From a virus (taxonomy: Duplodnaviria; Caudoviricetes), in the IMG/VR virus record IMGVR_UViG_3300020045_004870, positions 1-32,146 of that record: a DNA stretch of 32,146 nucleotides, one strand, 5' to 3'. The notes beneath the pieces are model-generated. The model did not search any database and was not told the DNA's origin. It saw nothing but the letters and a program-made list of their open reading frames with translations. Below are positions 2,552 through 26,918 of this stretch, piece after piece. A program made the translations under genes and the position numbers. The number at the start of each line of letters is the position of its first letter. Position 1 is the stretch's first letter.

Positions 2552-3133
2552 ATGGCTAACTCGAATGCACCAATGGGGCTGATCCCCAAACGTTACCGGA
2601 ATGGTTCGCCCTGGATGGGCGTCCTTCGTACCTACTTCCGTCCTGCTACCGACGCCAACGCGCTGTTCGTGGGTGATCCTGTCGTTCTGGCAGGCACTGG
2701 CGACACCGCTGGCGTTCCCGGCGTTGTCCGCGCTGGCGTTACGGGCTCGATCACTGGCGTTGTCGTCGGCTTCCGTCCGGTGTCGAACGTCAACCAGATC
2801 ATCCCGCCGCGCTTCCTTGCGGCTTCGACGGCTGGCTATGTGCTGGTCGCCGATGATCCTGCACTCCTGTTCGAGATTCAGGATAACGGCACGGCTATCA
2901 CTGGCGACATCGGCCTGAACGCCAATCTGGTAGCTGGTGCCGGAAATCAGCTTACCGGCCAGTCCGCCTATCAGGTGGATTCCACGACCAAAGCTGTCAC
3001 GGCAACGTTGCAGCTTCGTATCGTCTCGCTCGAACAGCGTGCCGATAACGTCCTTGGCGCTAACGCCAAGTGGCTGGTTGCTCTCAACACTCCGACCGAG
3101 ACTGGCGCCGCTGGCGCTCTCGGCGTCGCATAA
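2552..3133 (+). CDS. putative capsid decoration/minor capsid protein
   Basis: GAGGGG RBS; G/A/V-rich beta-type sequence (ALFVGDPVVL, VADDPALLFEIQ); directly upstream of the major capsid gene. Confidence 0.65.
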   Translation: MANSNAPMGLIPKRYRNGSPWMGVLRTYFRPATDANALFVGDPVVLAGTGDTAGVPGVVRAGVTGSITGVVVGFRPVSNVNQIIPPRFLAASTAGYVLVADDPALLFEIQDNGTAITGDIGLNANLVAGAGNQLTGQSAYQVDSTTKAVTATLQLRIVSLEQRADNVLGANAKWLVALNTPTETGAAGALGVA

Positions 3134-3147
3134 AAGGGGACTGAACG

Positions 3148-6322: not shown

Positions 6323-7300
6323 ATGACCACCAGCACCAAGGCGCCGGGGGAAACGGTCAACTTCGGGTACGACTTCACGTCGCGCCTCGGAGATTCTGCC
6401 ATTTCGTCCGTTGTATCGGTCGCACAAGTCGCTCAGCACGGCCTAGGCTCCCTTGGTGGCGGCTCATTTACGATCCAAGGTTCTCAGGTCGTCGTCACCT
6501 GGAGTGGCGGCATCAGTGGCGAGCAGTATCTAACCACTGTCACAGTGCAGACCACTGGCAGCGAGACGCTTGAATCGGTCGGATTGATTACGGTCGATGC
6601 CGGGGTCGTAGCTGATACGTCTGGCCTGACCTCCGGACTGATGTCCGCAGGCGACATGATAACCGCTGCCATGCAGGAGCTTGGCATCCTGTCGGCGGGC
6701 GAGACCCCTGACGGCGATGATACCATTCTAGGCCTGCGCGTCCTCAACTGGATGCTCAAATCCTTCGCCGCTCGGGGTGTGAACCTCTGGCGGGAGGAGC
6801 AGGGCAGTGTGGCGTTCCCGGCTGGCGTTGCGACGATCCAGCTGGATCCATTCTGCTTAGACATCATGGAAGCGCGGCTAGTGCAGTCCAGCACGTTCGA
6901 GCGCCCGTTGCAGCGTTGGGAAGGTGGACAATACCGCCAGATCCCGAACAAGGGGCAGAGGGGCTATCCTACGGCGTTCTACGTGGCCAAACAGACAAAC
7001 AGCCTGACACTGACGCTGTGGCCGGTTCCTTCCACCGATTCCACGGTGCTGTACACCTATTCGCGCGTGACTCAGGACGTGACGGATGCGGCGCAGAACC
7101 TCGATATCCCACAGGAATGGACGGAGACGGTGTATCTAGCCCTCGCGTCGCGCCTCGCTTCGACTTTTGGGGTGACCCGGATCGATCCTAACACCGTTAA
7201 ACTGGTCGCTCAGCGTGCGGCCGCTTACGAGCAGCTTTTGCTAGATCAAGATAGACCATCAAGCGTATTTATGGGGAGTGCATATGACCGTAACTTTTAA
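6323..7300 (+). CDS. head-tail adaptor (P22 gp4-like) with an extra N-terminal beta domain
   Basis: From about aa 107: AGDMITAAMQELGILSAGETP..GLRVLNWML, GYPTAFY, LWPVP, IPQEW..LASRLA; N-terminal KAPGETVNFGYDF domain. Confidence 0.75.
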   Translation: MTTSTKAPGETVNFGYDFTSRLGDSAISSVVSVAQVAQHGLGSLGGGSFTIQGSQVVVTWSGGISGEQYLTTVTVQTTGSETLESVGLITVDAGVVADTSGLTSGLMSAGDMITAAMQELGILSAGETPDGDDTILGLRVLNWMLKSFAARGVNLWREEQGSVAFPAGVATIQLDPFCLDIMEARLVQSSTFERPLQRWEGGQYRQIPNKGQRGYPTAFYVAKQTNSLTLTLWPVPSTDSTVLYTYSRVTQDVTDAAQNLDIPQEWTETVYLALASRLASTFGVTRIDPNTVKLVAQRAAAYEQLLLDQDRPSSVFMGSAYDRNF

Positions 7301-10958: not shown

Positions 10959-11489
10959 TTGCGTCATTTCCTACGCCTCGCGGATTCCATAGATGTCCTG
11001 CCAGTTCTGGCGGCTCTTTCGGCTCGTCCCGATCTGTGGAACGCAAACGACCTTCGGACCACGTTCCCCGGCAGCCCGCATGCTGATGTCGATGACATCT
11101 GGTGCATGTTCGATGACACCTCTGGCGATGTCGTAAACTCGATCCAGACGCATCCCTATGCGGGCTGGCTTGAACTTCCGGTAAAGGATCTCGTCCTTAA
11201 CCTGATGCGCCGCGTTGGCGGGACGCAACTCGGCCGCGTCATCGTGACGCGTCTTGCTCCCGGTAAATCGATCCCCGAGCATACTGACCAAGGGGCTCCG
11301 GCAGAGTTTTACCAGCGCTACCATATTATCTTGCAGTCCGGTCCGGGCTGCCTCGTGTACAGCGGAGGGGAGGTGATCCAGGCATCTGCGGGTGAGGCGT
11401 GGTGGTTTGATAACCGCGCGCCACACTCGGTTGTGAACAACTCCGCCGACGACCGTATCGTAATCGTCGTGGACGCGAGAGTATGCTGA
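10959..11489 (+). CDS. aspartyl/asparaginyl beta-hydroxylase family 2OG-Fe(II) oxygenase
   Basis: LAPGKSIPEHTD (HxD), RYHIIL, GEAWWFDNRAPHSVVN (distal His), DRIVIVVD. Confidence 0.85.
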   Translation: MRHFLRLADSIDVLPVLAALSARPDLWNANDLRTTFPGSPHADVDDIWCMFDDTSGDVVNSIQTHPYAGWLELPVKDLVLNLMRRVGGTQLGRVIVTRLAPGKSIPEHTDQGAPAEFYQRYHIILQSGPGCLVYSGGEVIQASAGEAWWFDNRAPHSVVNNSADDRIVIVVDARVC

Positions 11490-11941
11490 CCGCCGCCCCC
11501 GAACAGTGGCCAGCCTTCATTGAGGAGGCGAAGCCCTTACTGCCGCTCCACTACGCCGAACTGGCGCTGAACCAGGACAAGGTGCCGCTCTCCCCGCAGT
11601 ACCATGTCTATGCTGAGCGTGACGCGCTCGGGCAGGTGATGGTTATTGCGATGCGCGATGCCGGCAAGTTGATCGGCTATTTTATCGGTTTCGTCGCCCC
11701 CGGCCTGCACTATTCGACGTGCCTGACGCTTCATCTGGACATATTTTGGCTTCACCCAGACCATCGCGGAAAGAGCGGTGGAATGATGTTGTTTGCTGCC
11801 GTTGAGGCAGAGGCAAAGCGTCGTGGCGTCCAGCGCATGTTTGTCGGCTCCAAGTGCCACATGGACGCTTCGTGGATGTTCGAGCGCCTGGGCTACACGC
11901 GGGTAGAGACGACCTATTCCTGCTGGCTGGGGGGCGAATAA
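11483..11941 (+). CDS. GNAT family acetyltransferase
   Basis: GKLIGYFIG, FWLHPDHRGKSGGMMLF (motif A), MFERLGY. Confidence 0.85.
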   Translation: MLTAAPEQWPAFIEEAKPLLPLHYAELALNQDKVPLSPQYHVYAERDALGQVMVIAMRDAGKLIGYFIGFVAPGLHYSTCLTLHLDIFWLHPDHRGKSGGMMLFAAVEAEAKRRGVQRMFVGSKCHMDASWMFERLGYTRVETTYSCWLGGE

Positions 11942-19562: not shown

Positions 19563-19931
19563 ATGTCCATCGGATCATTTTTCAGCAAGATCTTCGGCAG
19601 CAAGGCCGGCCAGTCGGTTCAGGCGTTCGCCATGACCGAGGCACAGAAGGCGGTCGCAGCCCTGTCGAAAACGACCATCGGGGCCACGGTCGCAGCGGAC
19701 ATTGCGTCCCTGACCAATTCGAGCCTGTCGGGTGCGGAGAAGTTCGCGCAAGTCGTCGGCAATACCGCTCCCCTGCTCGCCTCGTTCCTGACGCAGGGCG
19801 GTGTGGCTACCGCTGTCGCCGACGCCGAGGATGTGGCTCGGCAGTTGGTCCAGAGCCTCTATAACGATCTCCAGTCCACCAAAGCGGGCTCGGTCGCAAA
19901 GTCCATTCTGGCACTGCTCGGCATCAAATGA
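19563..19931 (+). CDS. hypothetical amphipathic helical protein
   Basis: AGGAG RBS; MSIGSFFSKIFGSK N-terminal helix; KSILALLGIK C-terminus. Confidence 0.7.
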   Translation: MSIGSFFSKIFGSKAGQSVQAFAMTEAQKAVAALSKTTIGATVAADIASLTNSSLSGAEKFAQVVGNTAPLLASFLTQGGVATAVADAEDVARQLVQSLYNDLQSTKAGSVAKSILALLGIK

Positions 19932-20161
19932 GCGACAAGCCGCCCATTCTACCGGACGGCTTCAAATACTTCGTCGGCGAAACCGATCCGGCTATCCAAG
20001 GCTCCCAATGGGTAGTGCGGATAGCTCGGATCGGTGGAGACCAGAACAGTACGTGTAAGGCTGTATCGCCGCATTTCGTGTATCGAGATAGCGCTAATCG
20101 GTGGCGGGATTGGCTGGAGGGTCGGATCCCGAAGTTTCGGTATCTGCCGGGGGTGAATTAG
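19928..20161 (+). CDS. hypothetical protein (77 aa)
   Basis: ATGA overlap; ends 3 bp before the convergent tRNA. Confidence 0.55.
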   Translation: MSDKPPILPDGFKYFVGETDPAIQGSQWVVRIARIGGDQNSTCKAVSPHFVYRDSANRWRDWLEGRIPKFRYLPGVN

Positions 20162-20164
20162 GTT

Positions 20165-20241
20165 TGGAGCGCCCGGTGGGATTCGAACCCACAACATCGG
20201 GAATAGAAGTCTCGTGGCCTATCCAGTTGGCCTACGGGCGC
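20165..20241 (-). tRNA. tRNA-Arg (anticodon UCU)
   Basis: GCGCCCG TA GGCC AACTGGATA GGCC A CGAGA CTTCTAT TCCCG ATGTT GTGGG TTCGAAT CCCAC CGGGCGC T CCA; 77 nt, A20 Arg identity base, encoded CCA. Confidence 0.95.
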
Positions 20242-20289
20242 ATGGCCGGGGTCGGGCTATGCCGCCCCGGATGTTAAACTAAGAATAGC

Positions 20290-20316
20290 CTAACGTCGGC
20301 GCCTGAGTATCTTCAT
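20290..20316 (-). CDS. putative leaderless leader peptide MKILRRRR
   Basis: ATG AAG ATA CTC AGG CGC CGA CGT TAG; the ATG starts at the 7th nt after the -10 box. Confidence 0.55.
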   Translation of the reverse strand: MKILRRRR

Positions 20317-20322
20317 GGGAAA

Positions 20323-20351
20323 CCTATAGACTTCTTCGCCCATTCGTGCAA
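20323..20351 (-). promoter_or_regulatory. promoter of leader peptide + tRNA-Arg
   Basis: (C)TTGCAC-N17-TATAGG on the - strand. Confidence 0.7.
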
Positions 20352-20359
20352 GATGTCAT

Positions 20360-20455
20360 TGCTGCGGCGGTGCATCATGCAGCGCAGTTGGGGTGCGGGC
20401 TTTAGGGCTTATTCGTCTGTTCGATTCAGGTCGTGGTGCCAAAGCCGCCGCAGCA
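20360..20455 (+). ncRNA. tRNA-like RNA enclosed in a 12-bp outer stem
   Basis: Outer stem TGCTGCGGCGGT/GCCGCCGCAGCA; acceptor-like GCATCATG/CGTGGTGC; D-arm GCGC-AGTTGGG-GTGC; T-arm GTCTG-TTCGATT-CAGGT; G-U pairs favour the + strand. Confidence 0.6.
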
Positions 20456-20471
20456 CTTAAGTCCTAGCTCG

Positions 20472-20642
20472 CTAGGCTGCCGGGAGTCGCGACCCGGCGT
20501 TGATGGTGCGGGAGAGCGCCACACTGCTCGCTGATACTACGGTATCACCCGGCGCCACTCCCATAACAGCCACGATAGCTCTAAGCTGAAACACCGCCTT
20601 TACGTAGGCAAGCTCGCGCAGAATGGCGGCGGTGTCTGTCAT
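20472..20642 (-). CDS. possible 56-aa protein (not in ORF track)
   Basis: TAATG coupling to upstream ORF; MTDTAAILRELAYVKAVFQLRAIVAVMG...; overlaps a hairpin-rich region. Confidence 0.4.
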   Translation of the reverse strand: MTDTAAILRELAYVKAVFQLRAIVAVMGVAPGDTVVSASSVALSRTINAGSRLPAA

Positions 20643-20842
20643 TATGATTGCACCATCTGGTCAGGATCGAAGTCAAAGCGCTGGCAGAGTTGCCAAGCAT
20701 AGGTGGAGCCGAGGCCGAACCGATCCATTACGGTCGCCCACAGCGGGCGGCTATCGAAACGATTGAGACCACTTCTCCGGGACATGCTGGCGATCACTCG
20801 GCGCAGCAGTTCGGTGTCGGGGATCTCGGGCGCGTCAGCCAT
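20642..20842 (-). CDS. hypothetical protein (66 aa)
   Basis: GGGAG RBS; overlaps upstream stop; FGLGSTYAWQLC..FDFDPD. Confidence 0.7.
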   Translation of the reverse strand: MADAPEIPDTELLRRVIASMSRRSGLNRFDSRPLWATVMDRFGLGSTYAWQLCQRFDFDPDQMVQS

Positions 20843-25675: not shown

Positions 25676-25724
25676 GGTTTCCTAAACCGTAGGCCGCGCG
25701 TTCAAATCGCGCCGGGGGCTCCCA
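25676..25724 (+). mobile_element. attP core: 3' half of tRNA-Arg(CCU)
   Basis: GGT-TTCCTAA-ACC anticodon arm, GCGCG-TTCAAAT-CGCGC T-arm, CGGGGGC-T-CC acceptor strand; no 5' half; 55 bp from the integrase stop. Confidence 0.85.
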
Positions 25725-25779: not shown

Positions 25780-26754
25780 TTACCATGTCAAGCTTTCTGC
25801 TGCCTTAGAAAGAAATGTTGGTGAAAATCGCGCATACACTCTCTCGGTGATTCGGCTGTCGGTATGCCCGAGGAACTGCGCGATCTGCGTCATCGGGATA
25901 TTTTCCTCCGCCATCCAGACTGCTGCGCTGTGCCGGAGCATGTGCGGAGTAGCTTGGATGCCAGACCGATCGCAGGCATTCCCGAACCCTTTTTTGACCG
26001 AGCCGACTTTTCCCCGGCCATGCTCGATCACGTAATCCGACATCGCGCCGTTTTTGGCTTCGGCCAGGATCTCGCGGATTTGAGCGTTCATCGTGACGAC
26101 GGCTCGGTATTTGCTGGTCTGCACGCGATCTCGCGGGTTGAGGTGGATCAAGCCGCGGTCGAAATCCACCCGGTCCCATGTCAGATCCAGCAAGGCGTTG
26201 CTCCGCGCCCCGGTCGCCACGGCCAGCGCCATAAACAGCTTGATGTGCGGCCGAGATGCGCCCTCTAGCAGCTTGCGGAAATCCACTTTCGATATGTGCG
26301 ATACCGTCGAGGGGGGAAGTTTCGGCATCTGAATGAAGGGTGCCTTGCCGATCAGCTTGTGTTTCTCTGCCCAGTTGAGCGCCGCGCGGATCACCGCCAG
26401 CTCATTGCGGACCGTGATGGCTCGGCAATGCGCGCGCCGGGTCCGGTAATCCTCGGACGTTTTGATATCCACACGCGCCACCGGGATCTTACCCCAGAAC
26501 GGCTCTGAGGCCTTCCATGCCACCTGAGCGCGTTTGATCGAGGCAATCCCCGCCTTTTCCTTCAAGTAAGCCGCCACAGCCTCCCCCACGGTGTGTGCGG
26601 CCCCATTCAGTGAGCGCCTTTGCCAGAACGTTCGCGCTGCGGCTTCGGCCGATGCCCTATCACTCGTTCCAAGCGAATGTCGGTGGCGTCGTCCATCCTC
26701 ATGCCAGACGATGGCAAGCTTGTCTCGGTATCGGGTGAGGGTATAGTCCGGCAT
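25780..26754 (-). CDS. int: tyrosine integrase
   Basis: TGAR, HMLRH, LGH, VY catalytic motifs; GGAG RBS before MPDYTL. Confidence 0.95.
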   Translation of the reverse strand: MPDYTLTRYRDKLAIVWHEDGRRHRHSLGTSDRASAEAAARTFWQRRSLNGAAHTVGEAVAAYLKEKAGIASIKRAQVAWKASEPFWGKIPVARVDIKTSEDYRTRRAHCRAITVRNELAVIRAALNWAEKHKLIGKAPFIQMPKLPPSTVSHISKVDFRKLLEGASRPHIKLFMALAVATGARSNALLDLTWDRVDFDRGLIHLNPRDRVQTSKYRAVVTMNAQIREILAEAKNGAMSDYVIEHGRGKVGSVKKGFGNACDRSGIQATPHMLRHSAAVWMAEENIPMTQIAQFLGHTDSRITERVYARFSPTFLSKAAESLTW

Positions 26755-26918
26755 TCGTAGCGCTCCACTTCGTCGGCGCGGATTCTTATAAGCTTCCCGC
26801 CCAGCTTGAAATGGCGCAGATCGCCGCTTCGGATAAGGCTGTAAATGGTATCGGTGGCGCATCCCCAGTGGTCAGATAGGGACGCAACATCGTACACGGT
26901 TCGGACGCTCGCGCTCAT
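26607..26918 (-). CDS. xis: excisionase-type HTH protein
   Basis: YDVASLSDHWGCATDTIYSLIRSGDL..KLGGKLIRI..EVERY; overlaps the int start. Confidence 0.8.
   Translation of the reverse strand: MSASVRTVYDVASLSDHWGCATDTIYSLIRSGDLRHFKLGGKLIRIRADEVERYECRTIPSPDTETSLPSSGMRMDDATDIRLERVIGHRPKPQRERSGKGAH

Follow-up and report, generated by a model that had tools for sequence, protein, structure and literature searches.

Why phages and islands carry tRNA genes is a long-open question, for which codon compensation, nuclease evasion and lysogeny repair have all been considered. A phage tRNA-Arg gene that stands behind a promoter and a very short, Arg-rich reading frame raises this question in a particular form: does a ribosome reading the leader decide how much of the tRNA is produced? 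An earlier note on this DNA had proposed such an attenuator. We analysed the window, that is, the whole virus record of 32,146 bases (estimated completeness 74%), together with the loci related to its tRNA cassette.

A temperate phage with a spare tRNA gene

The window is a temperate podovirus-like phage. Its + strand genes, which extend to position 20161, encode head, head-closure, DNA-ejection and tail-spike proteins and a transglycosylase, and a block on the - strand holds the integrase and recombination genes. Also found among the virion genes are a GroES-like gene (783-1175, + strand) and an acetyltransferase gene with an uncharacterised neighbour (10959-11941, + strand). AGA and AGG together make up 7.7% of the Arg codons of the late genes and 9.2% of those of the leftward genes (phage genes only). 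Relatives of the lysin, 60-70% identical, are present in genomes of Novosphingobium, Sphingomonas, Sphingobium, Brevundimonas, Qipengyuania and Phenylobacterium (16 loci), and the acceptor stem of the phage tRNA is that of the Sphingomonas tRNA-Arg(UCU); from these two observations we infer a sphingomonad host.

The cassette (20163..20555, - strand) lies between the converging lysis genes and the leftward genes. In a related 151-nt Logan record, 20556 is followed directly by 20162 and the cassette is missing; this single record occurs in two runs of equal size, possibly one data set, so that an accessory insertion is no more than hinted at. Neither strand of the cassette has a U-tract by which the converging late transcript could terminate, and no RNA data set is listed among the sequencing runs matched to the sequence. 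The tRNA-Arg(UCU) itself (20165..20241, - strand, with encoded CCA), already recognised in the earlier note, is called by ARAGORN and scores 61.8 bits with the Rfam tRNA model, the only model above its gathering score in 19900-20700, where T-box riboswitches and other Rfam leaders were also sought. It has A20, U38, an A29-C41 mismatch and U73, and differs from a Sphingomonas host tRNA-Arg(UCU) at 17 positions, none of them in the acceptor stem. The spare tRNAs differ from host tRNAs in the anticodon loop and stem (U38 for A38, altered stem), and a mismatch at pair 29-41, mostly with U38, is common to the window tRNA and to those of loci L002, L018, L028 (its tRNA-Thr) and L206.

Just past the stop codon of the tyrosine integrase gene (25780..26862, - strand; PHROG 1, E 4e-49; PF00589) lies an attP-like 3' half of a tRNA-Arg(CCU) gene, about 49 nt long (25676..25724, + strand). 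It matches the 3' halves of two Sphingomonas tRNA-Arg(CCU) genes, has an altered T-loop, a U at the discriminator position and no encoded CCA, and scores below the cut-off with the Rfam tRNA model (23 bits, E 0.014). Given this half so close to the integrase, the phage probably integrates in the host tRNA-Arg(CCU) gene, the dedicated reader of AGG. When the attP-like half was joined to host 5' halves, ARAGORN called a tRNA for one of the two tested; no lysogen was encountered.

The leader frame and its relatives

Upstream of the tRNA, on the - strand, stands a sigma70-type promoter (20323..20351) with the -35 box TTGCAC at 20351-20346, a spacer of 17 nt and the -10 box TATAGG at 20328-20323. 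An ATG follows 6 nt behind the -10 box, at 20316, which is the +1 predicted from promoter geometry, and opens the mini-ORF M-K-I-L-R-R-R-R-stop (20290..20316), leaderless by this prediction, whose Arg codons are AGG, CGC, CGA and CGT. All these elements are where they had been described. The promoter of the cassette is not listed by a strict scan; a looser pattern of promoter plus ATG has two sites in the whole window, one of them this promoter, and an ATG-blind score ranks it first among 36 sites in the 250 nt upstream, this score being home-made, with weights set after some examples had been seen. Cognate codons are enriched in the mini-ORF (Arg at four of seven), and two of its codons, ATA and AGG, are rare.

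Once an ATG is given, 232 of 400,000 simulations produce a short ORF in which Arg codons number four or more and make up at least 4/7 of the frame; such an ORF stands behind 6 of 6,699 real ATGs, the window's own among them, with ATG occurring at a frequency of 0.015 per position. Since many windows had been screened, the Arg-rich ORF alone could be chance, and relatives were therefore sought by tRNA sequence or by lysin, without using the leader. The 13 related accessory-tRNA cassettes were then scanned for promoters, and four of them (L028, L238, L241 and L244) have a predicted leaderless frame with its ATG 6-7 nt behind the -10 box. The promoter site behind that ATG is the best by the ATG-blind score in L028, L241 and L244, and the second-best but nearest in L238.

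L028 is a prophage-like contig from a metagenome, picked out by a tRNA-only pattern; its frame has 12 codons, MNCNRTRTRTRR-stop, before tRNA-Arg(UCU) and tRNA-Thr(UGU). That of L238, between tetR and glyoxalase genes in a genome of the Novosphingobium genus, has 16 codons, MNGRRTNNSRPSRLRR-stop, before tRNA-Gly(UCC) and tRNA-Arg(UCU). L241, from the Sphingobium genus and directly behind a tRNA-Gly(CCC) gene, has 30 codons ending in TRRPRR-stop, and L244, from the Novosphingobium genus and adjoining a DUF2280 gene and a tRNA-Arg(CCG) gene, has 25 ending in GRLRP-stop; the window has 8. With three homologues in bacterial chromosomes or an island, the arrangement loses the phage specificity first ascribed to it.

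The five frames share one block, aligned in the same frame on an AGA or AGG codon. In the homologues it reads AGA/AGG-C(G/C)C-stop, in the window its core is Leu-Arg(AGG)-Arg(CGC) (20299..20307), and in all five an AGR codon, the class read by tRNA-Arg(UCU), stands 2-4 codons before the stop. Changes within the block include synonymous swaps of AGA with AGG and of TGA with TAG. The AGG at 20304-20302 is the only codon of the mini-ORF that the downstream tRNA reads, and the third Arg codon of the window takes the position of TGA in three homologues; the run of four different Arg codons, on which the earlier note had laid weight, is therefore a local extension, and the putative conserved sensor is the AGR codon. 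Of the proposed conservation of an ATG with an Arg run, the ATG, the frame and synonymous AGA/AGG variation are kept in the four cassettes, and the Arg run is not. The layout of promoter, ATG, ORF and tRNA is real and is conserved in frame and position across five cassettes, and start position and frame have survived length changes from 8 to 30 codons.

The probability of an ATG at +1 together with an AGR codon among the last four sense codons is 0.0017 per locus; this gives P = 5e-9 for at least four of 13 cassettes if the loci are independent, a figure that overstates independence since the five frames share descent. Two null sets, viral loci with the pattern of promoter, ATG and tRNA taken without a codon condition, contain no Arg-rich frame (0/11 and 0/17, no frame having more than one Arg). 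In the second set, four loci that are nearly identical (L196, L199, L201 and L204) have Met-Thr-stop at the predicted transcription start before tRNA-Thr(UGU). For cognate content, L028 ranks first and the window second among 130 distinct tRNA-cluster heads, a collection that predates the finding of L238, L241 and L244 and is in part enriched for Arg runs.

Comparison of the leaders suggests that their peptides in part track the tRNA cargo. Arg or Thr takes 8 of the 11 codons after the start in L028, which precedes a tRNA-Arg and a tRNA-Thr (3 of 400,000 simulations), and a GGA codon occurs in the leaders of L238 and L244, before tRNA-Gly(UCC) and tRNA-Arg(UCU); the leader of L241 is without a Gly codon though its cassette carries a tRNA-Gly. 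L018, a phage whose lysin is 69% identical and which has tRNA-Thr(UGU) alone, has a leader homologous to that of L028, beginning with ATC, with four Thr codons and ACA where L028 has AGA (aligned by eye).

Eight of the 13 cassettes have no such frame. In L206, L245, L027 and L026 no more than 25 nt separate the best promoter from the tRNA or tRNA-like gene, the cassette of L246 follows a long ORF, and L002, L007 and L025 have long leaders with no ATG at +1; the tRNA of L002 is 90% identical to that of the window, yet the leaderless frame is absent. The unusual anticodon loop recurs in seven more viral loci, none of which has a promoter-linked cognate frame, and at 29 host tRNA-Arg(UCU) loci the promoters, judged by eye, apparently stand immediately before the tRNA. 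In GenBank phages and PLSDB plasmids BLAST matched tRNA bodies only, a GGCC-stem tRNA-Arg pattern had 0 matches in GTDB genomes, and Thr-type and promoter-type patterns returned L018's record only. Among the lysin relatives, the cassette is present in one of 11 viral loci (L018) and in none of the 16 genomic ones. A TATAG-based pattern of promoter, ATG and tRNA, which would miss the promoter types of L238, L241 and L244, had 8 matches in 401 sphingomonad genomes, one at a real tRNA and none with a short cognate frame. Arg or Ser runs before tRNAs, at no fewer than 119 loci (at least 36 with a tRNA; 37/64 parts), gave a few short Arg-ending frames, and among the matches listed, with four upstream regions examined, none was tied to a promoter start. 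A further sample of 101 Sphingomonas genomes yielded a host gene only.

The survey also brought up other leaders and tRNA-like genes. In seven viral contigs (L148, L149, L150, L152, L153, L157 and L158) a motif that is conserved and apparently structured precedes tRNA-Met(CAU) by about 90 nt; it has no Rfam match at the gathering score for L148 and L149, and only a weak one for L148. Two more leaders share one post-lysis site. L002 has there an apparently structured 105-nt leader (3040-3145, - strand) with neither an ATG nor an Rfam match. The longer transcript-like region of L015 (about 6350-6720, + strand) starts in a similar way and ends in a tRNA-like T-arm with CCA, uncalled by ARAGORN. 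A tRNA-like gene with a shortened anticodon loop (L206, about 1450-1530, + strand), equally uncalled, heads a Thr(UGU) and Met(CAU) cluster in a Sphingomonas prophage. L006 and L011 have Met-Arg-Arg-stop 82 nt upstream of a tRNA-Arg(UCU), its two AGG codons forming a perfect Shine-Dalgarno-like stretch, with no promoter seen.

A candidate ribosome sensor and its rivals

The cognate frame, predicted to be leaderless and kept in four other cassettes, and the empty null sets make a sensor read by the ribosome the best reading of the cassette. We put at about 0.6 the probability that it is a leaderless, terminator-less feedback sensor of a rare codon, in which a ribosome lingering at AGG would raise the yield of mature tRNA. 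The general idea of a cognate-codon sensor has thereby outlived the details first attached to it, namely the weight on four Arg codons and the alternative fold. Transcription would start at the ATG, where a 70S ribosome would load. With fast decoding of AGA or AGG, the ribosome would leave while RNA polymerase is still transcribing the tRNA, and the leader, now free, would spoil the precursor: in the window the AGG-CGC codons would pair with nt 1-5 of the tRNA, brought near by two hairpins, acceptor stem and RNase P substrate would fail to form, and decay or Rho would remove the transcript. Under a shortage of charged AGR-reading tRNA, be it from starvation, host anticodon cleavage or a tRNA-Arg(CCU) weakened after integration, the stalled ribosome would mask the AGG-CGC codons, the cloverleaf would fold and the tRNA would be released. 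The window leader would test AGG, and three chromosomal cassettes AGA; that the AGG is connected with the integration site in tRNA-Arg(CCU) is a lead from one case. A wider and more doubtful proposal is that the tRNA gene controls its own maturation, with RNase P release and not termination as the switch, that it is tuned to AGG because integration remodels the host tRNA-Arg(CCU), and that it would offer the lysogen decoding repair on demand and an anticodon-nuclease alarm.

Folding as the specific output of the sensor is a tentative part of this reading. Positions 20303-20299 are complementary to nt 1-5 of the tRNA, and in the absence of a ribosome the AGG-CGC codons are predicted to pair there, in a junction that encloses both hairpins. 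At each of the eight partial transcript lengths tested (82 to 148 nt) this trap has the lowest energy, and in the full-length transcript it and the cloverleaf are no more than 0.3 kcal/mol apart. In the model, a ribosome mask raises the acceptor-stem probability from 0.43 to 0.98 in the window, from 0.01 to 0.94 in L028 and from 0.00 to 0.92 in L018; in the full-length control 50, 18 and 6 of 250 shuffles, respectively, do as well. In the early-trap control on six leaders, 14, 93, 178, 60, 194 and 173 of 200 shuffles are as good, and leader-tRNA duplex energies are matched by 554, 107 and 105 of 1000. In the model a stalled ribosome leaves the acceptor stem unfreed in L238, L241 and L244, and this, with the early-trap controls, led us to drop a family-wide acceptor trap; the trap predicted for the window is borderline against shuffles and not family-wide. 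In the window a ribosome anywhere on the ORF, the stop codon included, frees the stem equally, and the switch would therefore be purely kinetic. Rho may control tRNA output, since it would be blocked by a ribosome halted 6-48 nt ahead of the tRNA. The idea that rut-like C-richness makes the leaders Rho sites is weakened, since only L238 is notably C-rich and near significance, the C-richness of the window leader being matched by 36% of the background.

The hairpins of the window leave little room for the switch first proposed. What had been taken for a U-rich spacer is the loop and 3' arm of hairpin 1, a predicted stem of 9 bp, G-U pairs included, over the stop codon (20273..20294, - strand), with pair probabilities of 0.96-1.0 without a ribosome; a ribosome at or beyond the third Arg codon melts it. 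The GC-rich hairpin 2 (20246..20270, - strand; -16.7 kcal/mol) was correctly placed by the earlier note; it ends 4 nt before the tRNA, with CCAU in between. Together the two have a z score of -3.7, with 1 of 200 shuffles equally good. The reported lack of a U-tract is borne out, and a terminator scan has no terminator-like site there. Hairpin 2 forms in all six ribosome states modelled, and no antiterminator excluding it at some ribosome position was found. Stalling had been thought to free GGCUAU, which would invade hairpin 2 through AUAGCC and decide Rho termination or processing. The 6-bp complement is real, GGCUAU is free only with the ribosome at AGG, where the pairing gives the best fold at transcript length 62, and a pseudoknot with the outer stem lies outside the model of the folding program. 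GGCUAU is, however, normally held in hairpin 1, its pairing has a probability of 0.0 in all six states once hairpin 2 is complete, the forced fold (-8.4 kcal/mol) is about 11 kcal/mol worse than the two-hairpin fold (-19.6 kcal/mol), and neither hairpin is common to L028, L238, L241 or L244, all of which makes this switch improbable.

Three further explanations take the leader as something other than a sensor. The ORF could be translated and sense nothing, with a ribosome at the 5' end constitutively shielding the precursor from Rho, 5'-end decay and misfolding, and slow AGR decoding only lengthening its dwell. In its favour, the ATG at the predicted +1 and the frame are kept although the first part of the peptide is unalignable, a mask at any codon rescues the cloverleaf in the window, and no terminator or shared switch structure was found; we nevertheless think it unlikely, because it leaves the cargo-following codons unexplained (Arg and Thr in L028, Thr in L018, GGA in L238 and L244) and because the cassettes with very short leaders (L206, L245, L027 and L026) need no ORF. 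We give less credence still to the view that the block serves as an operator in the DNA or as a signal for RNA processing, with the ATG and the Arg codons an incidental by-product. With its six codons, Arg is frequent in GC-rich DNA, the screen took in many windows, all differences in the block between L238, L241 and L244 are non-synonymous, and L028 has at +3 the repeat GAAC-N7-GAAC, which we take to be the alphaproteobacterial LexA box and which automatically gives Arg-Thr codons. Yet no such box lies near the window cassette, five cassettes, with leaders that vary in length by whole codons, keep the ATG precisely at the predicted +1, exchanges of AGA with AGG and of TGA with TAG are synonymous, and both null sets are empty. 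Repeats of this type are located in the leaders of L028 (1885-1899, + strand) and L018 (about 6178, - strand). Lambda bar minigenes sequester tRNA as peptidyl-tRNA, and an ORF this short, with ATA and AGG as rare codons, resembles them; a minigene of this kind, or a basic peptide acting in trans, is hardly to be expected where homologous frames reach 25-30 codons of unrelated sequence and always stand in cis to a cognate tRNA, and we regard it as the least probable of all.

Relation to known systems

If the ribosome-read sensor is the right reading, a 150-nt cassette whose output is expected to depend on decoding speed at one rare codon makes the question of why such tRNAs are carried directly testable, since the condition that switches the cassette on is the condition for which the tRNA is kept. 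A literature search through listings and the beginnings of abstracts, with incomplete journal coverage, found no leader ORF controlling a tRNA gene.

Several systems are alike in their cargo. tRNA-dependent lysogeny (PMC10865867) has been described for temperate phages with a tyrosine integrase and an attP-like site matching a host tRNA gene; there, as here, the phage tRNA has the amino acid of that host tRNA and can read its codon (AGG in our case). The core there is about 10 bp and the host tRNA is not rebuilt, whereas the attP-like site of the window holds the whole 3' half, about 49 nt, and the tRNA may therefore be rebuilt; the anticodons here differ (CCU and UCU), and the abstract of that work does not speak of a leader ORF. 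The cryptic tRNA operon of Anabaena, with 26 genes, is induced by stress and controlled by the protein repressor TrcR (PMC8421152, PMC10272220). It likewise consists of accessory tRNA genes switched on under translational stress, but through a repressor, where we propose a translated leader. Nuclease-evading phage tRNAs (PMC10264068) differ from those of the host in the anticodon loop and stem, a likeness that we know from sequence; regulation of the tRNA genes is absent from the results section of that article.

Other systems are alike in their leader. Leaderless mRNAs are common in Caulobacter, where 375 have been reported (PMC4117421), and the closest parallel is offered by the mycobacterial attenuators with leaderless polycysteine sORFs such as Ms5788A, in which a stalled ribosome, by covering the cognate tract, keeps it from pairing with a downstream site (10.1101/834739). 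Common to both are a short ORF, which promoter geometry predicts to be leaderless here too, cognate codons at its 3' end and the lack of an intrinsic terminator, and the pairing of the codon tract with a downstream element unless covered is predicted here for the window, L028 and L018 only. Ms5788A responds to an amino acid and acts on the Shine-Dalgarno site of a protein gene, whereas here the target is a tRNA gene and the conserved sensor one rare codon, through which control would be exerted. Classical attenuators (trpL, hisL, thrL and ilvBN of Caulobacter) also have a short ORF with cognate codons, and multivalent ones match several products, as the Arg and Thr codons of L028 do. In contrast to them, the cassette has no pair of terminator and antiterminator and no U-tract, and the regulated gene would be the tRNA itself, in a direct feedback loop. 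By analogy, the cassette likely works like a leader-peptide attenuator but outside the classical family, because of the missing terminator and antiterminator. If this is true, a tRNA gene would join the protein genes known to be controlled by ribosome stalling, with no terminator involved, and the cassette would provide a compact reporter of tRNA-Arg(UCU/CCU) activity in Alphaproteobacteria.
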